64,000 nt of DNA. Origin: Elusimicrobia bacterium HGW-Elusimicrobia-1 (GTDB taxonomy: Bacteria; Elusimicrobiota; Endomicrobiia; PHAN01). Location of the stretch: assembly GCA_002841695.1 (NCBI GenBank), contig PHAN01000002.1, positions 90,807 to 154,806 of the forward strand, given 5' to 3'. Below, piece after piece: positions 3,001-58,268 of this stretch; positions within the stretch are counted from its first letter, which is position 1; every line of letters begins with the position of its first letter. The notes under the pieces were generated by a model. The model saw only the letters and a list, made by a program, of their open reading frames with translations. It did no database searches and was not told the DNA's origin. A program made the translations under genes and the position numbers.

Positions 3001-6000
3001 GGGGCATTTGTTCAATGACCCCGCAGGGACCAATGGGGCGGAAAATCGCGGCGAGATTTATCTTGACGCCATACCCAATGTGGAAATCAGGGACGAAGGC
3101 GACGGAACGATGCTTTTGCCGAACGTTTGGCGGTGGTATCAGGACAGAGCGCCGAGAGCGCCGTCGGGGGTTGGGATTTCAGCCGGTCCAAACATTTTAA
3201 CAACCGGCTGGACAAAAAACGCCGAGCCGGATTTACAATATTATACCGTTCAACGTTCGACATGGAATTCGGGATTTTCGGGCGCGGTCGCATCGGTTAA
3301 CATCGGCAAGGACCAGATTAGTTATGTCGACACGAATCTGCTCAATGGCAACACTTATTACTACAGGATCAGGGCGATAGACAGAAGGGCGAATATCGGC
3401 GATTGGTCTTCAACCATTTGGGCATATCCTCGGGCGGCGGATACAACCGCGCCTGTATCGCCATCGGGGTTGGCCGCGTATGGTTCGGGAACAAATGGGC
3501 TTGGATCGGTTGAAGTAAGATGGAATGCAAATTATGAAGGCGATTTGGCGGGATATAATATTCACCGCTCGACGGAAAGCGAGTTTGCGCCCGTCGCCGC
3601 CAATAAGTTAAACATCGTTTTGATTTCGCCGTCGCAGGAACCGCTTTACACCGACAAAAACACAACAACCGGCACGCAGTACTATTACAAGATTGTTGCA
3701 ATTGACGACAGCGGCAACACCTCAAACCCTTCCGTTCAACTTTCCGTAAAAATCATTCCGGTGACATTTAATGTCGATATGGGAAATATCAATCCTTCAA
3801 ACGTTCAAATACTCGGGAACACAAAACCGCTCGATTGGAGCGGAACAAATAGTTTGACGTGTCCGGCGGCCAGTACCTACACGATTACACTCGGCTTTGT
3901 TTCGGGAACTACGCTCTGGTATCGCTACGCCTATAACTCGGCTTCCGTCGAGGAACAGCCGTTTGCGACGTCTTCCTCGCAATACCGCGAGTATGTAATC
4001 GGGTATTCCACCGCCGTCGTCAGTAATGACTGGGAGCAAAACCCCGATATGGTTTCAGGCGTCAAGGTTTACGGCGGCGTCAACAAAGCATATCTTTACT
4101 GGGACGCGAACACGACCGCAGAGGATATCGCTGGATATAACATCTATCGCTCCGAGCCGCCCTCGACTACGCCCACACTTAAATTAAATGCGGGGCCCAC
4201 GAGTTATATTCAACCCTATACCGTCACAGGACTGGACACCGGCTCTACATATTACTTTTCGGTAAAAGCGGTTGATTCGGGGAGTCAGGTTTTGGAAAGC
4301 ACCGCCGCCTCGGTCGTTCCTGTTTTCATATCTTCGAGAGTTTACGTCCATTTCGGAATCCCGTTTTCAGTCGGACAATCAAGCGCGCCGTGGGGCGATG
4401 CCGACAAAATAAAGATGTATCTGGCCGTGCACAACTCGACGGATACGGATCTTTCCGTCTGGAACACTTCCGAAAGAGCAAATGTTACTGACGGAAAAAT
4501 GGTGATGACGGCCTCCGGCGACGGAACATATCGCGCTATGGTTCCTTTGGCTGTCGGAAATCGCTACAATTTTACATTCTTCGCGCAGACGACAAACAAT
4601 CCTCCGTCGGGCTTGAACGGCAACACCGAATATTACGATACAGTCCCGGATACGGGGAGTTTTATAGTTTCCAATTCATCAACGGGTATTTCTCCTCCGG
4701 CGGGCGTATCGGCTGTTTTTGCGCCGTTCGGGATAACCCGCGACGCCAGGCGTGTTCTGGTTTTGCCCTCTGATATTGCGGCCGGCTCCACGATGTACGT
4801 CTTTGCGAACTTCGGCTCCTCACCCACCGCGCCGACTTATATACAGGCCGTCGGCGGAAATAATAAAGTTACCCTTTACTGGTCGGCGCCGTACGGTTCG
4901 CCGTGGACGTATCCGTCTCCTGAAAAAACCGGCAATGTCCCTCTGGGCGGCGGCGAGTCGATGAAAGCGGCCGATGTCGTTGCCGGCGGAGTGTACCACA
5001 TTTTCGTCACCACATATAACCACGGCTCGTTTAATTCTTATACCGCAACAGTCACGCTTTCGGGCGGAACGATGAACTATACGTTTACGGGGCTTCAAAA
5101 TGGCGTAACTTATTACTATCTTATGCGTTCATCCGATACTTTCAAGGGACTTGTGGGAAATAATTTCAGCGTTTTGTCGGCGACCGTAAGCGCTCAGCCC
5201 ACGTCGGCGGCGGTTCCCGTAAGTGTCAGAGTAAACCGCGGGGCGCATCCATTGTGGAAAGCGGTGAGAAAAACAATCGCTTTTCAGGAAGGCACAAGCG
5301 TTCCCGCATGGGACGCCGACGGGAAGTCAAATATCACGCTGACAGGTAAAGCGGTAAATATGGTCGCCCCCGCCGATGATGCAACCGAGCAGGAATTCTC
5401 GGCGAACCTCATTCCGGGCACCTCGTATAATTTCATACTTTTCGCATACTCCACTTTTTCTATTGCGGGGCTTGAAACAAACACCACTTATTTTGATACC
5501 GTGCCGAACTTCGGCGCCGGCGGAATGATAACATCGACCTCGACCATTTCTATAACAGGGCACGGCAAAGCGCTTTGCGGGCCGGCGGGGCCGGCTTCCG
5601 ACGCAAGACGGATTTTGTATGTTCCGACCGATTTACCGTCGGGCTCCACACTTTACGTCTACTGCAACTTCGCCTCCAGCCCGAGCGCGGTTTATCTAAG
5701 TGCGTCCGTCGTGAGCACGTTTTCCGTCCAACTCGAATGGACGCCTTACGGCGCATGGGGAACGAGCGGCGAAAGTTTGAAAGCCGCCGACGTCATAGCC
5801 GGCGGACATTATTATGTATGGCGTTCAAGCGTCAGTTCGGCGGGGCCGTGGAATCTCTGGGTTTCGACGTCGGCGAGAAACTGGATTGACGCGGATCTCA
5901 ACGCGCCGGGCGACGGGCTGGGGCTTGAAGCAGGGCGGACTTATTTTTATGTCGTCGTGTCGTCGGACTCATATAGCGGAAACTTTATACCCAATATGTA

Positions 6001-6298
6001 CCGCGCCGGCGCGCCGGAGTTTTCCTCGTCGGACGCATCCGTCACGCCGCGCGAAAAAGCGCCGGTCTATTTCAAAGTCGAAAATAATTTCTTCGACGAA
6101 AGATACGTCCGCGCGATAGAAATCGCCATACTGCGCCCTCACCCCGCCCCTCTCCCATCGAGGGAGAGGGAGTTTTTGCCGCATAGTTTCCTCTCCCCTT
6201 ATCAAAAGGGGGATGGCTGCAAATACCCCGTCAAACCTTCGGTTTGCCACCCCTTTAATAAAGGGGAATACAGCCGGGGTATTATTCCCCTCTTTTAG
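5..6298 (+). CDS. Giant secreted GH13-family alpha-amylase-like protein with long FN3 domain array (5' end lies upstream of window; last ~60 codons run into palindromic repeats)
   Basis: Uninterrupted 2097-codon ORF from window edge. GH13-like motifs: GGDFQGV...MGINMLWFAPV, GFRFD (region II), GEIPG (region III), MMENHDETR (region IV). Repeated FN3-type signatures YYYRVRAVDRSGNKS, YYYRIRAIDRRANIG, YYYKIVAIDDSGNTS. Confidence 0.8.
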   Translation: MINSVTVSAGDALWRDAISDQRSDNHSSTQLDISSVGISCDEYNLYMFVAFASTVAANFDGRNFIQIMLDNGLTSTERVFRGRGVGSEDSYVSGDTAWEYLCEIVTDNDVFRVEDSQFSNRNFGGYSEHNDNYFYEVAMPLSNLGGKERFLGKTVNFTVATFWNDNGVVGQWGAGSSNIVDVVTSSGTNTWNEVSDRVVDYYMAITLSTSGAITAVSGATANSVPPMTEPQPDASAPPSALDYMLYNIFVDAWRDGDPANNNPTDTNSYGGDFQGVMDSADYFNEMGINMLWFAPVHQFGGGIWGYNLDDAYQFMSRFGGRDKYIEMAKKVKNRNLKTMLDWVPGQVGGKDSPTGKKYPNYFQDEIFGYGLRQEFAEPRAYMVNNAVWWSSFTDGFRFDNPKFWDNGDGPGRYEFCRVLRFAVDRWNPELYMMGEIPGTVGNFNEYTGSLGPMIHGAIDMASGGYKDAWDHHICAWARPGDAQSRTTIGVRSGLDEQQVTWKNDLSINPVMMENHDETRLISRYRPGGANGEWQQRVAYMTAFLVGGPAKIFYGGEVGLEGPYGGGSSEKMDRNGNVRQMLFNRANEWPWIAVRDSIRRTLQAKANFPELRGDPKKGGRGWYTGGQYDDNVLVVARTWANPDRKSIVMINRSAGNVQMSSVGTGDNNTVYKDWLTDKNFTTNASGILQDNDNTDGDGNLNTFNVDSHNGRILIRGGYDWVNITGSVKDGAGNPVPGAVVDIDRKSHWTTTTDAGGNYSLSGDLRKVLTGNRTIRVWANGFGIVDISTNIVIAGGVNRTQNFTLTADNAPPQPPTNLSGRPRKNAAMIFWQPNTEGDIQSYIVYRSTVSIAAGSFPAPLVEIFSPYYYDNNFDGRINSDGKHVDLLENGATYYYRVRAVDRSGNKSALSNQIAIVPRPIKATFWVDTRDSGQSVASVDVEGDALAFGDTKPERNVRGWTQLFSNGDGTFQRTFDMDDSDFIEYKYVITTSGGGRIGEGDAGHLFNDPAGTNGAENRGEIYLDAIPNVEIRDEGDGTMLLPNVWRWYQDRAPRAPSGVGISAGPNILTTGWTKNAEPDLQYYTVQRSTWNSGFSGAVASVNIGKDQISYVDTNLLNGNTYYYRIRAIDRRANIGDWSSTIWAYPRAADTTAPVSPSGLAAYGSGTNGLGSVEVRWNANYEGDLAGYNIHRSTESEFAPVAANKLNIVLISPSQEPLYTDKNTTTGTQYYYKIVAIDDSGNTSNPSVQLSVKIIPVTFNVDMGNINPSNVQILGNTKPLDWSGTNSLTCPAASTYTITLGFVSGTTLWYRYAYNSASVEEQPFATSSSQYREYVIGYSTAVVSNDWEQNPDMVSGVKVYGGVNKAYLYWDANTTAEDIAGYNIYRSEPPSTTPTLKLNAGPTSYIQPYTVTGLDTGSTYYFSVKAVDSGSQVLESTAASVVPVFISSRVYVHFGIPFSVGQSSAPWGDADKIKMYLAVHNSTDTDLSVWNTSERANVTDGKMVMTASGDGTYRAMVPLAVGNRYNFTFFAQTTNNPPSGLNGNTEYYDTVPDTGSFIVSNSSTGISPPAGVSAVFAPFGITRDARRVLVLPSDIAAGSTMYVFANFGSSPTAPTYIQAVGGNNKVTLYWSAPYGSPWTYPSPEKTGNVPLGGGESMKAADVVAGGVYHIFVTTYNHGSFNSYTATVTLSGGTMNYTFTGLQNGVTYYYLMRSSDTFKGLVGNNFSVLSATVSAQPTSAAVPVSVRVNRGAHPLWKAVRKTIAFQEGTSVPAWDADGKSNITLTGKAVNMVAPADDATEQEFSANLIPGTSYNFILFAYSTFSIAGLETNTTYFDTVPNFGAGGMITSTSTISITGHGKALCGPAGPASDARRILYVPTDLPSGSTLYVYCNFASSPSAVYLSASVVSTFSVQLEWTPYGAWGTSGESLKAADVIAGGHYYVWRSSVSSAGPWNLWVSTSARNWIDADLNAPGDGLGLEAGRTYFYVVVSSDSYSGNFIPNMYRAGAPEFSSSDASVTPREKAPVYFKVENNFFDERYVRAIEIAILRPHPAPLPSREREFLPHSFLSPYQKGDGCKYPVKPSVCHPFNKGEYSRGIIPLF

Positions 6299-6370
6299 AG
6301 GGGTGTCCGAAGGACGAGGTGTTATTCCCCTTTTACAAAAGGGGTGTCCCGAAGGGACGGGGTATTTGAG
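6137..6370. repeat. Cluster of short CCCCTTT-N-AAAGGGG type hairpins (P1-related) overlapping the 3' end of the giant gene
   Basis: Successive inverted repeats: ccctctcccatcgagggagaggg, cacccctttaataaaggggaa, ttcccctcttttagaggggtg, ttccccttttacaaaaggggtg. Confidence 0.6.
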
Positions 6371-7635: not shown

Positions 7636-7720
7636 AAAATCTCCCCTAACCCCTCTTTTTCAAAGAGGGGGAATAAGGGAACAATCCCCCTTTATTAAAG
7701 GGGGATAAAGGGGGATTTTT
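7636..7720. repeat. P1 palindromic element (AAATCCCCCT...CCCCCTTTnAAAGGGGG...AGGGGGATTT)
   Basis: Terminal inverted repeat aaaatctcccct / agggggatttt enclosing two internal hairpins; same family at 39948, 40383, 50775, 58173. Confidence 0.7.
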
Positions 7721-39321: not shown

Positions 39322-39924
39322 ATGTCAAGAAAACTCCTTAAAATTTCCGAAGCCGCCAAACTTGTAGGCGTCCTTCCATCCACAATCCGTTACTACACCG
39401 ATATCGGACTTTTGAAGTCAAGCGACGAAACCAAAGGGGGGCACCGCCTCTACGACCCCGACGACGTCGCCGCGATCGTAAACAAGATAAAGTTTCTCTC
39501 GGCCCGCGGACTCACTATGGATGCCATAAAAAAAGAACTCGCCGCCGGCAGAAAATCCAAAAAAATACTGGTGATAGACGACGAACCGGAGGTGGGAAAT
39601 CTCGTCAGGGATGTCGCCGCCGAGAAGTTCCCCGACGCCGAAGTCAAAATCGTCTACGACGGGTTCACCGCCGGCCGCGCGCTGTCGGATTATCTGCCGG
39701 ATTTAATAGTGCTCGACTTGATGCTTCCGGGGATAAACGGTTTTGAGGTCTGCAAGCAGATTCGCGCAAGCAAGTTTATGAACGGCGTAAAGATTCTGGC
39801 CGTAACGGGTTATGATACGACGGAAAACAAAGAACGCATAATGAAATCGGGCGCCGACGATTATCTGGCCAAACCTCTTGAGGTGGCGGCTCTGGCGGCC
39901 AAGATTAAGAAGATGATATTGTGA
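39322..39924 (+). CDS. Response regulator with N-terminal MerR-type HTH domain fused to a CheY-like receiver domain
   Basis: LLKISEAAKLVGVLPSTIRYYTDIGLL (MerR HTH); receiver KILVIDDEPEV...DLIVLDLMLPGINGFEV...KILAVTGYD...GADDYLAKP. Confidence 0.8.
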   Translation: MSRKLLKISEAAKLVGVLPSTIRYYTDIGLLKSSDETKGGHRLYDPDDVAAIVNKIKFLSARGLTMDAIKKELAAGRKSKKILVIDDEPEVGNLVRDVAAEKFPDAEVKIVYDGFTAGRALSDYLPDLIVLDLMLPGINGFEVCKQIRASKFMNGVKILAVTGYDTTENKERIMKSGADDYLAKPLEVAALAAKIKKMIL

Positions 39925-39947
39925 TTTTTTTAAGACGTATCCGTAAG

Positions 39948-40027
39948 AAATACCTCCCCCTTTGGAAAAGGAGGATTGAGGGGGAAATCGGCCTCCCCCT
40001 TTTTAAAGGGGGAAAGAGGGGGATTTT
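39948..40027. repeat. P1 palindromic element
   Basis: aaatacctcccccttttggaaaaggaggattgagggggaaatcggcctccccctttttaaagggggaaagagggggatttt. Confidence 0.7.
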
Positions 40028-40033
40028 AATTTT

Positions 40034-40383
40034 ATGATTTTGCCATACAGTCCCAAGTTAAAATCATATTCAAGAGAATTAAGAAAGAATATGACGGATG
40101 CCGAGAAAAAAATATGGGGAAAACTCCGACGGAAGCAATTAAAGAAATGTCAATTTTACAGACAAAGAGTGATAGGTGAATATATAGTGGATTTTTTTGT
40201 TCCTCCGCCAAATTGGTCATCGAAATCGATGGCGGCCAACACTATACGAAAGATGGTATGGGCAGAGATAAGATCCGTGATGATTACATTAAAAATCTCG
40301 GTGTCAAGATATTAAGATTTACGGACAGAGAAGTTTTACAAAATATTGATTTAGTGGTTGGGCAAATATATGAAAATTTGTAA
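40034..40383 (+). pseudogene. DUF559-family endonuclease-like gene disrupted by a frameshift in a T7 homopolymer (or a homopolymer sequencing error)
   Basis: N-terminal LRKNMTDAEKKIWGKLRRKQL...FYRQRVIGEYIVDFF in frame 1; shifting +1 after the T run gives CSSAKLVIEIDGGQHY...GVKILRFTDREVLQNIDLVVGQIYENL ending at 40383; AT-rich. Confidence 0.7.
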
Positions 40384-40462
40384 AAATCCCCCTGTGTCCC
40401 CCTTTAAAAAAGGGGGATTAAGACATTTCGTCGAGCTCCCCTTTTAAAAAGGGGGAATAGAA
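40383..40462. repeat. P1 palindromic element
   Basis: aaaaatccccctgtgtccccctttaaaaaagggggattaag...gctccccttttaaaaagggggaat. Confidence 0.7.
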
Positions 40463-40564
40463 AGCCGCACCCCAAAGATTCTTGTGATTAACGACGAGAC
40501 GGAAGCACGGAAGATTAAGAAGATATTATTCTGATAGGAACGAACAGTCGGTAACTTTGGGTTA

Positions 40565-43500
40565 ATGATGGTTAAACGGATTTTTGCCGCTATCGGAGTT
40601 TGGTTTTTTTTGACGCTTTGCGTTCTGCGCCCCGCCTTTGCCACAACCAATAATACGATAACCATAGACGCCGCCCTCGCCGACTGGCAAAGCAATGAGG
40701 CGCTCGGCACTTCTTTCGGGCAATTTTATTTCACATGGGATGCGAGCAATTTTTATTTTGCTTATAATCGCGGCGGAACTTTTACCGCTGACCCGGATGT
40801 TGTCTGGATTTATATCAGCACAGTAGCGCCAACATCTACCGCCGGAACTTTTACTTCGGTTGATTGGACTGGCACCCATACACTTCCCTTCCGTGCAGGA
40901 TACGTCTATTTATTCAGGCCCAATGCCGAGTATAAAACCTACAGAAATTGGACCGGCTCGGCTTGGTCGGGAGATTGGGCGGGGAGCGCAACTACAAGCC
41001 AGAATTATGGCAGTGGTATAGTAGAGATAAAAATACCCAGAGCAGATATCGGCAACCCTTCTTCAATCAGGGTTACCATGTATATCACTAACGGGTCAAA
41101 TAACTATGTTTTTGGAACTACCCCGAGGGAAAATCCCAATGGCGCGACGGGAAGGTTGATGGGTTTGTCTTGGTATTATCCTAATTGCTCATCCACGGGA
41201 GTGTTCCCGAATTTAATTAGGTACAGATATCCGGGGGTTGTTATTGCTGATGTGTCGCCAAATGCAGGCGCGGCCGGGAATGATTATGTCACACTGTATA
41301 ATCCAAATGACGAGGCATTATATTTAAGTAACCTGCAATCGCATCATGGTTTGCCGACCGGATTAGTGTTGCGCTTTAGAACATATAACGGAGCAACGGG
41401 AACAAATAAAACACTGACTGTGGTTTCTACAAATACGATCTCCTCGCGAGGATTTTCGTTACTCGCATCCGGGACACCGCCGAAAACCGCCGATATAACT
41501 TTTGCTGCTGGGCTGGATACCTCAGATGACGGGGTGGTGATAGCGTATTCCAATACGACAACATTTGGCACCGACACATGGACATTGACCGATCTTTTTG
41601 GATGGGGGGGGCAAACAGTCGCCCTTGAAGGTAGCGCTCCCGCCAATCCTGGCACCGCCGATAGTTTTCAAAGAAAAGCATGGTCAACAACCGCAAGTTC
41701 CGCATCCATGCGTCTTGATGGCGAGGACACATACGCGGGGCATTTCATGGATACACACAACAACTCAAGCGATTTTGTGACCCTGATAAGTTCGTACATT
41801 TCAAATAATAGTTCGGATCCCCGCGAAGGATTCCTCGGCCAGTGCTGGCACATACCGGACAACACCTCCGATTTGGGCGGCATATCAATGCGCAACCCCC
41901 TGACGTATATTTATTTAAACACGCCCACAACTTTTTATGTAGGCAATTATTTTCAAGGAACCGGAAACCCGGGCGATATGTCGGGCGGGACGCTTTATTA
42001 TAAGGCAAAAACGGAACCATCATGGAGTTCCGTTTCTTTTGCCTATGATTCAACATCCGGCAACAATAAATACTGGCGTGCTCTCCTGAATAATTCTTAT
42101 ACAGCGGGGACAACCGTTCAATATTATATCAGCGTAGCATACGCGGACAGCCACGACACCACTCTTCTGTATTACAGCGGCGGACAAAGCAGAAGATGTT
42201 ACGAAACATACATTGCCACGAATACGCCTTCCGAGTTTATTGTTCAGGCGGACGCCGCGCCGGATCCCATAACGCCTACGCTGTCGCGGGCAGATGAGAT
42301 GGGAGCGAAAATTTACGTTACATGGGCAGCCCAGGGCGGGATGGACGGCTACAAAATCTATCGCTCATCCGTATCCGCGATAACGAACGGCAATAGGGGC
42401 GACGCAAGCCACCCCCTCGACGGAACGGCTACGCCGAGCGCCGCGGAATCGTACACTACGTCCGCCCTATTGCCCAATACCACTTACTGGTTCGCCGTAT
42501 GCGCCTATAAAGACGCCGTCGAGGGCGACGTCGGTTCGGCGGTTGCCATACGCACCGCCAGAATCTCGATAGACGGTTCCGCCTCCGACTGGGCGACCTC
42601 CGTGGAGTCGCCGTGGGTCAATGAATCAACGACCACGCTTGCATCCGGCTCCGGCACAGTTCCTTATTACGAATGGTCGTGGCGCGACAAGGCGTGGGAG
42701 CAAAGAACCGATTCCGCTCAGGACGACCGCAATTTCGACCTCAGGAATTTCCGCGTAGCCGCCGACGAGGAATACATTTATTTTTATACGAAATACGACA
42801 ACATCACCGATAAGGATTTTTATCATTTTGCGGTCGCCATAGACACGGGCGGCGCGACGGGATTAAATTGGCTCGGCGACGATTCCAACTCCGACACGAA
42901 CGGCGGCACCGCTATGGGCCTCGGCGGCGAATACGTCGGGGCGCTCAAAGCGGCGGCCATACTGGCTTTCCGCTACATTTCCACAGCCGGCACGGATTTC
43001 AGGATACATATGTACAAAAACGGCGGTTCCGGATGGGACACGCCCGCGCTCACCGGAGCCGGAAACACTGCCTGCTGGCTTACCACCGGCGACGGCGGAT
43101 GGATGGAAGCCAAAGTCCGCCGCTCCGACATAGGCGCCGCCGGAATCAAAACCCTGAAATTCTCCGCCGCGGTTTTCGAGAATCTGTTGGGACTCATAGG
43201 CGACGTGGACTCGACCAAATACTACGCCCCCGACGCACTCGACGCGATGTCCATAGCGCGTATTTCCGCCGCTTCGACCTACAACGATTCGCAGTGGGGT
43301 ATGAACTCCTGGGACGAGGACATATCCGATTCCGACGCGGATTTCTGGGCGCAGGCGCAGATAGACGCCTCGGGCCTCAAAATTAACCAACCTCCATCCG
43401 CGCCGTCTCTTTCGCTTCCCGCCGATGGCGCGGGTGTCGATATATCCACGCCGGCTTTTTCGTGGAGCGACAACGGCGACCCCGATTCTGGCGACGCAGT

Positions 43501-46500
43501 GACTTCGTATATGATAGAGATTTCCACCTCGGCGAATTTTCCGACGCTGGTGCAATGTCGGGTCAACGTCGCGGGGACTTCGTGGACGGTGCCGCAGGGG
43601 GTTTTGGATCAGGGGCAGTACTACTGGCGCGTCAAAGCGCGCGACCGTGGCGGGGCGGCTTCCGTGTCGTCGGCGTCGCGCTCTTTCATCGTGGACACCT
43701 CTCCGCCGGACAAAATCACGAATCTCTCCGCGCTGCCGGGCGATTCCTCCAGTCGGATAAACCTTTCATGGACCGCGCCAGGCGACGACGGCTCCGTCGG
43801 CAATATCACCGGCGGCAAATACCGCGTCAAATGGTCTACATCCGCGGTTTCCGACTGGGACTCGGGGACTTGGACGGACTACGTCAACAAATATTCTCTT
43901 GAGTTCTCCACCGACGCGACTCCGTCGCACACCCACGGGCTGACAATTACCGGCCTGACGGCGGGCGCGTCGTGCCTGCCGTCAGGCGCGACGTATTATT
44001 TCAGAATGTGGACGCGTGACGAAAACGCCAACAACTGGTCGGATATTTCCGTCGGCGCGACGCAGTACTCTCCCGGGTCCCCCGTCGGGCACGCCCACGG
44101 CGACAGAGAAACATTCACGGCGCTGACTTCCGGAGGCGCATACGGCTCGGGAACAAATATCGTCTATGCCAAGACGACCGCCTGCGGCAGATTGTTTTTG
44201 ATACGCGGCGCGTCAAATTTATTTTATGAATACGACATACCCAACGACTTATGGAATTCCAAGGCGACACTTCCTGCCGCGGCCGGCACCGGTTCGGCTA
44301 TGGTCTGGGTCTCCACGGGCACGGAGGCCGGACAGTCGTGGCTTTACGCCATTCGCGGCGGCGCTCAAGACCATTTTTACCGTTATAACATAGCGGAGGA
44401 TTATTGGCAGACGATGGCCAATTTGCCCGATGCCGTCGCGGGCGGCGCGGCGATGGTGTGGACCGGCGGCGCCGATATATTCGTGTCCAGTCCCGCAGCC
44501 GGCGGGCCGTTCTGGCGATACAACATACCCAACAACAGGTGGAACAACGTTGCCGACGGAGGCGACCCCGCCGATTACGGCGTGGCCTTCGGATTGGGCG
44601 GCGGGCTTACATGGGACGGAACATACGTTTACGGCCTGCGCGGCGGCACTCTGAAGACGTTCAAAAGATATTCTCCGTCGGGAGACGCCTGGACCGACCT
44701 GACCGGCGCTCCGGAGAACGTCGGCGCGGGCGGCTCGCTGCTTTACACCGGCGGCAACTCTATTTACGCCATAAGAGGCGGAGGTAACACCGACCTTTGG
44801 CATTACGACATCGAGACGAGTTCTTGGGTAGTCCTTCCCAATCTTCCCTCCCCGGTAGGCACTAATACCGGCAATCGTCTGGCGTATCATTCCGACAACG
44901 GCGCTCTGGACCATCTTTATATCTGGCGCGGTGCGACGGCCAATGACTTGTGGTGTTTTCGGCGGGACATAACCGCCCCGTCGGCGATAGGCGATCTTAC
45001 GGCTTCCGTGGTGGACGGCTCCTGTGTCGCAATTCGTCTTGAATGGACGGCACCCTACGGCGACGGCACCGAAAACGGCCTCACGGAGACGTCGCAGTTC
45101 TGGATACAGTATTCGGATATGGACGTCGGCTGGAGCCGCGCAAACGCCCAGGTAAAAGTAACGGCCGGCCCAGTCGCCGCCGGCGCGCCCTGCGTTTACG
45201 ATATTAGCGTGCCGCATTGGGGGGTAAGTTACTATTTCAAAATATGGACGGGCGACAAGGTCAAAAACTGGTCTTCGTCATCAAACTCCGGCGGTCCCAT
45301 ATCGGTCACAACTACAAAAACGCTCTCCGGAAAAATCACTAACTCCGAAACAGGACAGCCCATTCAGGGAGTGGGCGTGGGACTGTCCGGTTTCAGGAAC
45401 GGCCGTACGTTTACCGACGCGGGGGGAAATTACTCGTTCACCGTGCCGGTCTGCCGACAGTACATCGTGATGCCGTCGAGCGCGGCTCTGCATTTTACCA
45501 CGGCCACGGCAAGCGGCATAGACTCTTCCTATCCCGACCGCTACGAGTTTTCCTCGTTCCCCAACGACCGCAGCGACCTCGACTTCGTGGGGCATCCGAC
45601 TTACGGCAACCTTTATTATTCCACGGACACCCTTACGACCACCGACATCGTCGGAACCACAAAGAAAATGTCGATAAGATTCACCGCGAACGACACCCGC
45701 CCGTACAACCGCGTCTACACCTATAATTCGACCGCCGCCGGCAATGATTCTTACGTGTTCGAGTTGCGCGGCGACGATGGCGATGGCTATCCCGGCATTC
45801 TTTTGTCTTCATCCACCGCGAATATATACAAAAACGACGGCTGGCATTACGCCACCGGCGCGTGGTCTCTCACAAAAGGAACCACATATCATATGGTGAT
45901 ATACTCCACTTACACCGCGGCAACCAACTATAGAATAAGAAAATCCGCGCCGCTTTCGTTCAACCGCCCCACAGACGCCGAGCCCGACTTCGCGGCAAAT
46001 GTTCTGGATTACGGCTTTGACGACAACCCTGATTTCTGGATGGTCAGGAACTTCACGCCCATCTACTACTTCCACTACGCCGCTCCGCCTTATTACCAGG
46101 AAGGCAATCCCTTCGGCGTAATCTCGTCGGGCGCGTACTATCAGGTGAAGGGTTCGACATGCATAGGCCAGATATTCACCATGGAAAAGTCGTCGGTATC
46201 GGCCAAGGCATTCCACTTCTGGGTAAAACGTTCCGCGGTACAGCCGGAAGACGGCCTTTACTGGTTTCTTCTGGGCCCGAATGACTCGTCCAATGTTTTG
46301 TCATCGGGACTTCTGGCCTCTCCTGAGGCCGTCGCCACCGAATTCAACTGGCACATTTCGGAGCAGATGGTGGAATGCCCGGCGCCGCTTTTGAAAGGAA
46401 GCACATACTGGATAATTCTTAAATCCACCGGCTCAACGTCGGGCTACTACGAGTTCGCCACCCTCAATCATGGAGCCACCGAAACTTACAGGGACGCCAT

Positions 46501-47803
46501 TACCTATCGCGGGGCTGACAGTACCCTTGTCGTCAACTACGGAACGACGTTTGACCCGCGTACCTCCCGCGATGCCATATTCCGCGTGCGTCACTCCACG
46601 GTGGTGACCGGCGGACCAAAAACAATTACGGATTTGGCCGCCGCGACTTCACAGGACGCCGAAGGCGCGGTAGACCTTGACTGGACGTACCCCGGAATTT
46701 GCGGTCACGTGGATTTGCCCATAGGCAGCCGCTACTACATACAGCATTCCACGCATCTGGACGCGCCGTTTAACTGGAATGTGGACAATGCTCAGACGGT
46801 AATCTCCACCGGACCGGTTCTTGTGGGGGAACATCAGTTCTACACCAAGATGTCCTTGGACGAAGGCAACACTTATTATTTCACCGTCTGGTACTGGCAT
46901 TCTGATTTTAACGTCACATCTCTTGCCTCCAACGTCGCGACGTCGTGGGCGTCTCTTATAGCGCCCGCGGCCGTAACGAACCTCACCGCGCTTCCCGCTT
47001 TGCGCGGACGTTCCATCGATCTGGCCTGGACGGCTCCCGGCGACAACGTAATGACCGGCGACATAACAGGCGGCGCGTACCGTCTGAAATATTCCACTTA
47101 TGTCGACGGAGGCGATTCGTTCTGGAACGGCGGCGACTGGACCGACCGCACTTATAAGTATGAGATGATATGGTCGACGGATACCTCGCCCGGTCAGGAT
47201 GAGGCGCTCAACATAACCGCGCTTTCGCCCGGCACGACTTATTATTTCCGGCTTTGGACCCGCGACCGCTTCGAAGACAACTGGTCGAACATTTCAAACG
47301 GGGCCACATCGTGGGCGCAGGTGGTAAATCTTTCCGTCTACGTTCTTGATTCGTCCACTTACAATTTCGGAGCCGTGCCCACTCAAATATCGACCGTGTC
47401 GCTGAACGGAATAATCGTCCGCAACGACGGCAACGTAAATGCGTCCTATTTGTTGCGCATCGCCACCGGCACAGTGCCTCCGGCCAACACTATCTGGGAT
47501 ACATCCACGACTATCGGCGCCAACAGATTCGTGTTAAAAACAATGTTCAAAAACGCCCAGCCGCTCGACGGAGATTTCGGCGCGGCCGCGGGAGACGACG
47601 TGCTCACGCTTGAAGATATTTACGCCACCGGTGTCAACTTTTCCGACGGCACTCACGAAGGCCGCTACATAGAGCCGTTTTTGGCGGCTCCGCTTTTGTC
47701 CGACACGACTTTATGGTTCCGTCTCTCCACGCCGCTTTCCACATCGACCACCGAATATCAGACCATACCGGTGGTAATTACAAGCGAGGAGACGTACCCG
47801 TAA
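40565..47803 (+). CDS. Giant (2412 aa) secreted multidomain surface protein: CBM9/DOMON-like N-terminal domain, FN3 domains, probable beta-propeller repeats
   Basis: Signal peptide MMVKRIFAAIGVWFFLTLCVLRPAFA; N-terminal TITIDAALADWQSNE...FYFTWDASNFYFAY; FN3 signatures TTYWFAVCAYKD, GQYYWRVKARDRGG, TYYFRMWTRDEN, TYYFRLWTRDRF; repeated LYAIRGG / YAIRGGG segments. Confidence 0.8.
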   Translation: MMVKRIFAAIGVWFFLTLCVLRPAFATTNNTITIDAALADWQSNEALGTSFGQFYFTWDASNFYFAYNRGGTFTADPDVVWIYISTVAPTSTAGTFTSVDWTGTHTLPFRAGYVYLFRPNAEYKTYRNWTGSAWSGDWAGSATTSQNYGSGIVEIKIPRADIGNPSSIRVTMYITNGSNNYVFGTTPRENPNGATGRLMGLSWYYPNCSSTGVFPNLIRYRYPGVVIADVSPNAGAAGNDYVTLYNPNDEALYLSNLQSHHGLPTGLVLRFRTYNGATGTNKTLTVVSTNTISSRGFSLLASGTPPKTADITFAAGLDTSDDGVVIAYSNTTTFGTDTWTLTDLFGWGGQTVALEGSAPANPGTADSFQRKAWSTTASSASMRLDGEDTYAGHFMDTHNNSSDFVTLISSYISNNSSDPREGFLGQCWHIPDNTSDLGGISMRNPLTYIYLNTPTTFYVGNYFQGTGNPGDMSGGTLYYKAKTEPSWSSVSFAYDSTSGNNKYWRALLNNSYTAGTTVQYYISVAYADSHDTTLLYYSGGQSRRCYETYIATNTPSEFIVQADAAPDPITPTLSRADEMGAKIYVTWAAQGGMDGYKIYRSSVSAITNGNRGDASHPLDGTATPSAAESYTTSALLPNTTYWFAVCAYKDAVEGDVGSAVAIRTARISIDGSASDWATSVESPWVNESTTTLASGSGTVPYYEWSWRDKAWEQRTDSAQDDRNFDLRNFRVAADEEYIYFYTKYDNITDKDFYHFAVAIDTGGATGLNWLGDDSNSDTNGGTAMGLGGEYVGALKAAAILAFRYISTAGTDFRIHMYKNGGSGWDTPALTGAGNTACWLTTGDGGWMEAKVRRSDIGAAGIKTLKFSAAVFENLLGLIGDVDSTKYYAPDALDAMSIARISAASTYNDSQWGMNSWDEDISDSDADFWAQAQIDASGLKINQPPSAPSLSLPADGAGVDISTPAFSWSDNGDPDSGDAVTSYMIEISTSANFPTLVQCRVNVAGTSWTVPQGVLDQGQYYWRVKARDRGGAASVSSASRSFIVDTSPPDKITNLSALPGDSSSRINLSWTAPGDDGSVGNITGGKYRVKWSTSAVSDWDSGTWTDYVNKYSLEFSTDATPSHTHGLTITGLTAGASCLPSGATYYFRMWTRDENANNWSDISVGATQYSPGSPVGHAHGDRETFTALTSGGAYGSGTNIVYAKTTACGRLFLIRGASNLFYEYDIPNDLWNSKATLPAAAGTGSAMVWVSTGTEAGQSWLYAIRGGAQDHFYRYNIAEDYWQTMANLPDAVAGGAAMVWTGGADIFVSSPAAGGPFWRYNIPNNRWNNVADGGDPADYGVAFGLGGGLTWDGTYVYGLRGGTLKTFKRYSPSGDAWTDLTGAPENVGAGGSLLYTGGNSIYAIRGGGNTDLWHYDIETSSWVVLPNLPSPVGTNTGNRLAYHSDNGALDHLYIWRGATANDLWCFRRDITAPSAIGDLTASVVDGSCVAIRLEWTAPYGDGTENGLTETSQFWIQYSDMDVGWSRANAQVKVTAGPVAAGAPCVYDISVPHWGVSYYFKIWTGDKVKNWSSSSNSGGPISVTTTKTLSGKITNSETGQPIQGVGVGLSGFRNGRTFTDAGGNYSFTVPVCRQYIVMPSSAALHFTTATASGIDSSYPDRYEFSSFPNDRSDLDFVGHPTYGNLYYSTDTLTTTDIVGTTKKMSIRFTANDTRPYNRVYTYNSTAAGNDSYVFELRGDDGDGYPGILLSSSTANIYKNDGWHYATGAWSLTKGTTYHMVIYSTYTAATNYRIRKSAPLSFNRPTDAEPDFAANVLDYGFDDNPDFWMVRNFTPIYYFHYAAPPYYQEGNPFGVISSGAYYQVKGSTCIGQIFTMEKSSVSAKAFHFWVKRSAVQPEDGLYWFLLGPNDSSNVLSSGLLASPEAVATEFNWHISEQMVECPAPLLKGSTYWIILKSTGSTSGYYEFATLNHGATETYRDAITYRGADSTLVVNYGTTFDPRTSRDAIFRVRHSTVVTGGPKTITDLAAATSQDAEGAVDLDWTYPGICGHVDLPIGSRYYIQHSTHLDAPFNWNVDNAQTVISTGPVLVGEHQFYTKMSLDEGNTYYFTVWYWHSDFNVTSLASNVATSWASLIAPAAVTNLTALPALRGRSIDLAWTAPGDNVMTGDITGGAYRLKYSTYVDGGDSFWNGGDWTDRTYKYEMIWSTDTSPGQDEALNITALSPGTTYYFRLWTRDRFEDNWSNISNGATSWAQVVNLSVYVLDSSTYNFGAVPTQISTVSLNGIIVRNDGNVNASYLLRIATGTVPPANTIWDTSTTIGANRFVLKTMFKNAQPLDGDFGAAAGDDVLTLEDIYATGVNFSDGTHEGRYIEPFLAAPLLSDTTLWFRLSTPLSTSTTEYQTIPVVITSEETYP

Positions 47804-50630: not shown

Positions 50631-51000
50631 TTTGCCGGCGGATGCGGTTGTCTATTCTCTACGGGGAGAAAAAACATCACCCATTCGCCGGCCTTCTTTT
50701 TTGCGGAGCGGAGGTCTATCTCTACGGGGAGAAACGCCTGCCGCTCCGCTTACTATTTTGCAGAAACGCGTCGGGAAAATCCCCCTGTATCCCCCTTTAA
50801 AAAGGGGGAATATCGCACCTCCCCCTTTGGAAAAGGGGGACTGAGGGGGATTTCAAAAAACCATTTTGCCGGCGGACCGGAAGTTTGCCTCTACGGGGAG
50901 TGCATCACTACCGGTCCCGCCGGCTTACTTTTTTTTGCGGACGGACACGAACGTCGAACCTCTACGGGGAGGCAGTACGCATCGCCCGTCCGCATCTTTT
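50631..51000 (+). repeat. Array of four ~70-bp hairpin units with conserved loop motif CTCTACGGGGAG and covarying stems, interrupted by a P1 element (50775-50853)
   Basis: Loops at 50657, 50721, 50890, 50961; stems gccggcg/cgccggc, gcggagcgg/ccgctccgc, gccggcggaccgg/ccggtcccgccggc, gcggacgg/ccgtccgc; each unit followed by a T run; reverse-complement motif ctccccgtagag at 50438. Confidence 0.7.
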
Positions 51001-58136: not shown

Positions 58137-58172
58137 AAAGAACACCCGCTGTCCCGCCGGAAAAGCAAATTA

Positions 58173-58268
58173 GAAATCCCCCTGTATCCCCCTTTTAAAA
58201 GGGGGGTTGAAAGAGATTGTCGGGTGAAGTTCATCCCCCTTTGAAAAAGGGGGAAAGAGGGGGATTTA
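58173..58268. repeat. P1 palindromic element
   Basis: gaaatccccctgtatcccccttttaaaaggggggttgaaag...catccccctttgaaaaagggggaaagagggggattt. Confidence 0.7.

Follow-up and report, generated by a model that had tools for sequence, protein, structure and literature searches.

The small DUF559 gene at 40034-40383 of the window (by which we mean the whole 64,000-nucleotide stretch of DNA that was analysed) raises the question of how its present state should be read, as its 116 codons, counted with the frame restored, are split in both sequence and translation at a run of seven T residues at 40192-40198. The first-pass annotation of this locus left three options open: a decaying pseudogene, a homopolymer sequencing error, or a slippery, phase-variable tract. 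Our own reading is that a very recent and apparently fixed T8 to T7 deletion has probably inactivated a small DUF559 nuclease gene, leaving a young pseudogene. Taken alone the frameshift is routine for a young pseudogene and of low interest by itself, deserving an annotation note and serving as an example of a conserved D-F-F-C motif that makes a fragile tract. The coordinates of the gene, of the cassette in which it lies and of the related repeats are collected in Table 1.

Table 1. Position of the broken DUF559 gene, its surroundings and the related hairpin repeats, numbered from the first base of the window.
Feature	Position	Strand	Remarks
Flanking host gene, MerR-HTH and receiver-domain response regulator, intact	39322..39924	+	
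Left copy of 24-nt direct repeat	39901..39924	+	AAGATTAAGAAGATGATATTGTGA, the 3' end proper of the MerR-receiver regulator gene
Whole insert, ~610 nt relative to the empty site of L167	39925..40534	+	GC 33-38% vs 54% for the window
Upstream hairpin doublet A	39948..40027	+	Hairpins 39955-39975 and 39994-40013, then AAGA and G-tail GGGGGATTTT at 40018-40027
Left 33-nt terminal inverted repeat	39995..40027	+	Hairpin, AAGA and GGGGGATTTT; pairs with 40383-40415, 91% complementarity
DUF559 ORF as it stands	40034..40315	+	55 genuine N-terminal codons, 38 out-of-frame codons and stop; 93 aa
T7 tract, site of the one-base deletion	40192..40198	+	Zero frame GA_T TTT TTT GTT; orthologue T8, GAT TTT TTT TGT, D-F-F-C
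DUF559 C-terminal half	40198..40383	+	-1 frame; CSSAKLVIEIDGGQH...IYENL, TAA 40381-40383; includes ExDGxxH, the second half of the nuclease motif
Right 33-nt terminal inverted repeat	40383..40415	+	AAAATCCCCC, TGTG and hairpin; begins at last base of stop codon
Downstream hairpin doublet B	40384..40461	+	C-tail AAATCCCCC, hairpin 40397-40417, spacer, hairpin 40437-40456
Fragment resembling a receiver-domain start (KILVINDETEAR), 37 nt	40474..40510	+	With the right 24-nt repeat forms a mini-relic (KILVINDETEARKIKKILF and stop)
Right copy of 24-nt direct repeat (AAGATTAAGAAGATATTATTCTGA)	40511..40534	+	Followed by the sequence found after the regulator stop in L167
Flanking host gene, 2412-aa secreted fn3-rich giant protein, intact	40565..47803	+	
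Solo hairpin pair, direct orientation	7651..7720		Second hairpin bears GGGGGATTTT tail
Solo doublet without gene	50774..50856		AAAATCCCCC-hairpin-spacer-hairpin-GGGGGATTT; one long hairpin, dG -27.1 kcal/mol, z -5.1
Solo doublet, same hairpin family	58171..58268		One long hairpin, dG -29.8 kcal/mol, z -6.4

The reading frame opened by the ATG at 40034 starts as MILPYS...EYIVDFF, its first 55 residues (MILPYSPKLKSYSRELRKNMTDAEKKIWGKLRRKQLKKCQFYRQRVIGEYIVDFF) being typical of DUF559, before it continues out of frame to a stop at 40313-40315. The remainder of the domain, (FF)CSSAKLVIEIDGGQHY...VKILRFTDREVLQNIDLVVGQIYENL, is read from 40198 to a TAA at 40381-40383. The offset between the two frames is 179 nt, or 2 mod 3, which places the C-terminal half in the -1 frame and means that one inserted base repairs the gene. 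With one T added, the 116-aa protein matches Pfam DUF559 (PF04480) over profile positions 2-108 of 109 (E = 3.9e-35, 120.5 bits, with a gathering cut-off of 20.6 bits), and this match is far above chance. The unrepaired 93-aa product covers positions 2-49 only (E = 1e-14, 54.8 bits), the rest of the profile lying in the -1 frame. The earlier claim that the C-terminal half becomes readable only after a shift at the T run therefore stands, since T8 restores the full domain, and its "+1" holds in the sense of one inserted base, the C-terminal half itself lying in the -1 frame; the position that it gave for the run, 40191-40197, was one base off. The 93-aa frameshift product has no called-gene record by exact-sequence look-up, and tblastn found no second DUF559 copy within the 64-kb window.

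Once repaired, the protein also matches a solved structure, 3HRL (deposited as "endonuclease-like protein"), with E = 1.3e-18, and the Vsr-type catalytic motif is present, IVDFF...VIEIDGGQH aligning with IVDFM...IVEADGGQH of 3HRL. With the DUF559/YcjD-like Vsr-fold nucleases (PF04480, 3HRL) it thus shares the whole profile, a length of ~115 aa and the D...ExDGxxH arrangement, and differs from them in that the window copy is frameshifted. DUF559 has been grouped with Vsr, DUF2726 and the homing endonuclease I-Bth0305I among the PD-(D/E)xK nucleases (PMC3424549). The two halves of the catalytic motif, VDF and ExDGxxH, fall on opposite sides of the frameshift and, given what is described of the Vsr/DUF559 fold (PMC1189080, PMC3424549), a product in which the VDF strand is parted from ExDGxxH would be expected to have lost nuclease activity. 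We found no nuclease assay for the DUF559 subfamily of the repaired protein in the DUF559 literature that was searched.

Three more specific identities were considered for the repaired protein and set aside. It scores 80 bits against the E. coli YcjD equivalog (NCBIfam NF007294), below the cut-off of 218. A role in Vsr very-short-patch repair is not indicated, as there is no Pfam Vsr match at E <= 0.01 and the gene lies between those for a response regulator and a giant fn3 protein, with no cytosine methyltransferase as neighbour. PADLOC returned weak partial matches only (DpdF, mREase_II), reflecting the shared nuclease fold rather than a defence system.

The state of the gene before the break can be read from its closest protein match (P0001, 95% identity), encoded on Logan contig SRR29054604_1362 (hereafter L001) in the same synteny as in the window, with a regulator, the DUF559 gene and a giant fn3 protein. 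The L001 copy carries T8 and an open 116-codon frame in which GAT TTT TTT TGT encodes D-F-F-C. As this sister copy is intact with eight T residues, the window allele is a one-base deletion in a T8 tract, and it is this syntenic orthologue that favours the pseudogene among the three options first proposed. Between the repaired window gene and that of L001 dN/dS is 0.17, and 3' of the break the two differ by 6.5 synonymous and 3.5 non-synonymous changes with no further defect; the lack of a second defect downstream indicates that the deletion is very recent. The length of the T run was compared between these two lineages, the window population and L001, and the genome and metagenome contig collections that were scanned held no further close orthologues (best 66%). 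Among 157 in-frame homologues, a sample biased by the use of EYIVDFFC among the search seeds, the codons for D-F-F/Y-C include eight consecutive T residues in 21 and seven in 14. The T tract appears to be a by-product of the D-F-F-C motif in AT-rich genes, and as such a natural slippage hot spot.

Two other homologues in the family are also interrupted. In L097, at 698-1044, a close homologue (65% identity) changes frame between residues 36 and 40; this is an independent frameshift, the second seen in the family, and it lies at another position. At 1308-1497 of L149 a homologue (61-65% identity) is broken near residue 50 by an insertion of ~190 nt with ends formed by 14-nt terminal inverted repeats, ACCCTGTTGTTGCA...TGCAACAACAGGGT; this looks like a different miniature element that landed near the same part of the gene.

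The T7 run is not peculiar to a single assembly. It is present in six of six public assemblies of the HGW-Elusimicrobia-1 population, which come from three pipelines (JGI 3300038334 and 3300029821; ENA ERZ27239240 and ERZ27239243, MEGAHIT; Logan SRR3546454 and SRR3546449) and over 3.2-6.6 kb show 100% identity to the window, with the qualification that some of them may have been drawn from overlapping read sets of one project and would then be only partly independent. They were found by exact-sequence look-up of the adjacent response-regulator protein, the source of which NCBI names Elusimicrobia bacterium HGW-Elusimicrobia-1. The JGI gene caller also met the break, calling only a 56-aa C-terminal piece in one of these contigs (L081). 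Sequencing of the Horonobe groundwater metagenomes used Illumina HiSeq paired reads of 150 bp, with a separate assembly for each sample (PMC11657941), and the runs behind the present assemblies, such as SRR3546449 and SRR3546454, would seem to belong to that project. The window shows no general homopolymer indel problem: of its 64 long homopolymer runs, 48 fall within open frames of 250 codons or more, among them frames of 2099 and 2422 codons. One of the six assemblies, JGI 3300029821 (L083), differs in another respect, lacking ~150 nt of the giant fn3 gene (window 42396-42544), which is called there in two pieces; this absence reflects a polymorphism mediated by repeats or else a collapse during assembly.

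A broken frame can still be productive, and apart from the single indel the DUF559 copy shows no decay, a state that fits a very young pseudogene and equally a copy that is still expressed by slippage. In such a leaky or recoded gene the T7 allele would yield some full-length nuclease, either by a -1 ribosomal slip on T_TTT_TTT or by transcriptional slippage adding a U, so that expression would be throttled and not abolished, as in the transposase frameshifts of IS1/IS3. The T_TTT_TTT at 40192-40198 is indeed a canonical -1 slippery heptamer, X_XXY_YYZ, in the zero frame, and a -1 slip upon it gives V-D-F-F-C-S-S-A-K-L-V-I-E-I-D-G-G, the exact consensus; moreover, the defect-free downstream part has gathered more synonymous than non-synonymous changes, and the host element looks mobile, frameshift control being common in mobile elements such as IS1/IS3. 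In its single-base change within a run and its heptamer the locus resembles both homopolymer frameshift pseudogenes and -1 frameshifts of the IS1/IS3 type. Unlike the programmed frameshifts of that type, however, the break is not conserved in relatives, L001 having T8 in frame and the 157 sampled homologues being in frame across the motif, and no significant stimulator of -1 frameshifting was found, the 105-nt downstream fold being matched by 54 of 200 shuffled sequences (z = -0.55). Seven T residues are also short for efficient transcriptional slippage. An unconserved frameshift with no stimulator points to a mutation rather than a programme, and residual expression through possible, unprogrammed slippage is in our estimation unlikely.

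Phase variation, in which the run would toggle between seven and eight T residues at high frequency and switch the nuclease on and off within the population, is more doubtful still. T7 and T8 do occur at the same site in two related lineages, and homopolymers are the usual substrate of phase switching. Nevertheless, the length is constant at T7 across the six assemblies of the population, and seven or eight A/T bases lie at the low end for contingency loci. The codons of a conserved motif account for the run, the length of which follows synonymous codon choice across the family, and the gene has no surface or restriction-modification function of the kind that is usually phase-varied. Apart from the two lengths in two lineages, the option raised by the first reading of the sequence has no support. 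That the organism truly carries T8 and an intact gene is very improbable, because, even though homopolymers are a classic site of indel errors and six assemblies that may share read sets are not fully independent, it would take a systematic error common to all of them to give the same T7 in three pipelines and at least two runs with identical flanks, in a window where other long homopolymers leave their frames unbroken and from an Illumina chemistry that rarely miscounts 8-mers.

If inactivation by a recent deletion is accepted, the next question is why it should have been tolerated, and here the surroundings of the gene are informative. Across 39900-40500 the GC content drops from ~54% to 33-38%, and in four related Elusimicrobia contigs (L167-L170) the site is empty, the giant gene following directly after the regulator. 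The closest empty-site relative is L167, with a regulator 89% identical to that of the window; the regulators of L168-L170 are 75-78% identical and the intergenic gap there is 11-36 nt. In L167 the regulator stop is followed by TGGGAATGAAC...ATGTCAAAACGG, and the counterpart of this sequence in the window adjoins not the regulator's own stop but the relic 24-nt copy at 40511-40534. This comparison defines the insert as 39925-40534, or ~610 nt; a 24-nt direct repeat of the target flanks it.

Divergence within and around the insert differs sharply. Window and L001 are 95-96% identical from 39925 to about 40470-40494, with a dS of 0.12 for the ORF, against 82.6% for the regulator gene (dS 0.72) and ~66% for the start of the giant gene, while at the regulator gene the window, L001 and L167 are about equidistant (dS 0.62-0.84). 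The contrast between a dS of 0.12 in the cassette and 0.72 in the regulator indicates that the cassette was exchanged or homogenised long after the hosts diverged; alternatively, the cassette was lost precisely in L167. The gene is thus the coding part of a low-GC cassette of ~0.5-0.6 kb between genes for a response regulator and a giant surface protein, and not a housekeeping gene, and the empty sites, the low GC and the divergence contrast make the cassette appear both dispensable and mobile. Placement in a repeat-bounded, apparently mobile cassette fits a gene that is dispensable and decaying.

From this we propose a sequence of events that begins with slippage during replication in the T8 tract imposed by the D-F-F-C codons, which would have removed one T and left the 93-aa product without nuclease activity. 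The cassette would behave as a selfish or dispensable element, presumably with no selection against the loss, which would have been tolerated to the point that T7 may now be the majority allele in the Horonobe groundwater Elusimicrobia population, perhaps beside a minority T8 allele.

The right-hand boundary of the insert has a composite structure of its own. In the mini-relic at 40474-40534 the first part is similar to the receiver start in the upstream regulator gene (39561-39590, 77% identity), and the final 24 nt are a copy of that gene's 3' end (88%). The mini-relic is conserved in L001, whereas the empty site of L167 lacks it; the first part of the mini-relic falls inside the young 96%-identical segment and the last part outside. 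It could represent a long target duplication together with DNA captured from an earlier location.

The ends of the cassette belong to a repeat family that occurs elsewhere in the window. The motif CCCCCTTT-N3-AAAGGGGG matches 23 times, compared with 0.33 expected, in six clusters, two of which flank the DUF559 ORF. The downstream doublet B is a direct copy of doublet A over ~80 nt (local alignment score 61; best of 300 shuffles 36), and the G-run of doublet A sits at Shine-Dalgarno distance from the start codon, GGGGGATTTT ending 6 nt before the ATG. An ORF between two direct doublet copies invites a loose analogy with an integron cassette, in which an ORF is paired with an attC-like palindrome. 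The full form, AAATCCCCC-hairpin-spacer-hairpin-GGGGGATTT, is seen in the doublets without a gene at 50774-50856 and 58171-58268. A scan of 39800-40700 against Rfam at E <= 5 returned sub-threshold chance matches only, which places the hairpins in no described RNA family.

Plain intrinsic terminators were considered as an explanation for the hairpins, since the left unit with TTTTAATTTT fits the terminator pattern and doublets of A-tract, hairpin and T-tract could terminate in both directions. Terminators fail to explain why the same sequence, with matching tail variants, should occur at DUF559 genes of unrelated phyla, and termination is a possible side function of the hairpins rather than their explanation.

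Two further features of these repeats were seen in the window. In the intergenic region at 6140-6345, which follows a 2097-aa ORF, three or four different hairpins are clustered, including CCCTCTCCCATCGAGGGAGAGGG (~6150-6172) and three CCCCTT..AAGGGG hairpins without a G-tail; these are degenerate or different members of the repeat population. A short ORF (window 40358-40447; L001 1351-1515) begins inside the end of DUF559 and crosses the right-hand hairpins; it has 54 open codons in L001, where it is called as a gene, and 29 codons followed by a stop in the window, and is probably a spurious translation of repeats, giving peptides such as PPVSPFKKGG.

The association of the gene with these ends extends well beyond Elusimicrobia. 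A single search returned 2562 DUF559 relatives at E <= 1e-10, and homologue-encoding loci were taken from genome and metagenome collections. At loci with 55-66% protein identity, which include MAGs labelled Actinomycetota, Syntrophus and Dehalococcoidales, a hairpin precedes the gene in 9 of 12 cases and follows it in 11 of 11, against a background of one hairpin per ~1.6 kb, and the hairpin architecture persists at 40-50% protein identity with other tails. When the pattern was relaxed, a hairpin and G-tail upstream together with a C-tail and hairpin downstream were seen at 43 of the 161 homologue loci sampled. The 8-nt end tails are exact reverse complements of one another in 36 of these 43 loci, where 1000 trials of random pairing gave a mean of 7.6 and a maximum of 15.

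The tails fall into at least five classes (GGGG-ATTT/ATTA, -ATGT, -TTGT, -TGTG and -TGGG), and class follows protein similarity, the nearest neighbour belonging to the same class in 35 of 39 cases (permutation mean 8.5, maximum 19). Where hosts are named, the ATTT class is found in Elusimicrobia and Syntrophus, the TGTG class in Balneolaceae, Edwardsbacteria, Elusimicrobiota and one archaeal MAG, and the ATGT class in Hydrogenedentota and Saprospiraceae. Solo units in the same loci carry the tail class of the resident gene in 31 of 48 cases. As far as comparison of sequences can tell, this pattern suggests a conserved, co-varying nuclease-plus-hairpin cassette that has spread across phyla.

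It is possible, and we put this forward tentatively, that small DUF559 proteins are dedicated nucleases of cross-phylum miniature palindromic elements, comparable to RAYT/REPIN systems but with a Vsr-type PD-(D/E)xK enzyme. In this model each element would be a CCCCCTT..AAGGGGG hairpin with a G-run and then a 4-nt tail behind it, and the autonomous unit would be the gene with one hairpin doublet, ~0.5 kb in all, with the nuclease possibly taking part in moving the hairpin elements. Gene-less doublets would then be non-autonomous derivatives, and the window would hold a just-inactivated master copy and its orphaned repeats. Our literature search, which was of incomplete coverage, found no link of DUF559 or Vsr-like proteins to such repeats or to mobility.

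Comparison with REPIN/RAYT systems is instructive in both directions. REP doublets are described as being mobilised by a single-copy Y1 transposase with a gene that is flanked by REPs (PMC3116915, PMC3337134). The elements described here are likewise short palindromic units whose inverted intergenic doublets fold as one long hairpin, and the protein gene is flanked by units, solo units mostly sharing the gene-end variant of the resident gene. The flanked gene, however, encodes a Vsr-fold PD-(D/E)xK nuclease of ~115 aa and not a Y1 tyrosine transposase of the IS200/IS605 type. Furthermore, while RAYTs are described as mostly vertically inherited, the DUF559 elements show signs of horizontal spread, namely low GC, presence in some relatives and absence from others, and variant classes each distributed over several phyla.

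Free-standing homing endonuclease genes, including that of the Vsr-like I-Bth0305I (PDB 3R3P), provide the second obvious comparison, since in them, too, a small gene encodes a nuclease and nothing else. The locus also shares with them an occurrence at one site that varies among relatives, a cassette dS of 0.12 against 0.72 in the flank, and decay by frameshift once fixed, gain, fixation and decay being the classic homing cycle. Conversely, the DUF559 gene is intergenic, with no intron or intein, and has 33-nt inverted ends and a 24-nt direct target repeat, whereas homing produces neither inverted hairpin repeats nor direct target repeats. The tract of high identity also stops sharply at the repeat ends, without fading into the flanks.

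DUF559 is a very large family of unknown function and, if the proposal were true for a sizeable part of it, the family would gain one. REP-like repeats would likewise gain a second type of protein partner besides RAYTs, and the cassette would rank among the smallest candidates for an autonomous mobile unit in bacteria. The same elements would also account for common intergenic palindromes and for assembly breaks in uncultured lineages.

Two loci outside the Elusimicrobia carry repeats that deserve a separate mention. A Bacteroidales MAG locus (L016, 1-4000) has two DUF559 copies separated by ~2.6 kb and sharing 82% identity over 757 nt; arrays of ~100-190-nt repeat units surround them, with 24 extra hairpins in 5.8 kb. 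In the fabI-ycjD region of E. coli K-12 (L172), ycjD being the model DUF559 gene, a 25-nt inverted repeat lies at 4217-4241 and 4396-4420, its arms (ACCCTCTCCCCAGAGGGGCGAGGGG and CCCCTCGCTCTTTCAGGGAGAGGGT) 80% complementary and one of them overlapping the 3' end of ycjD.
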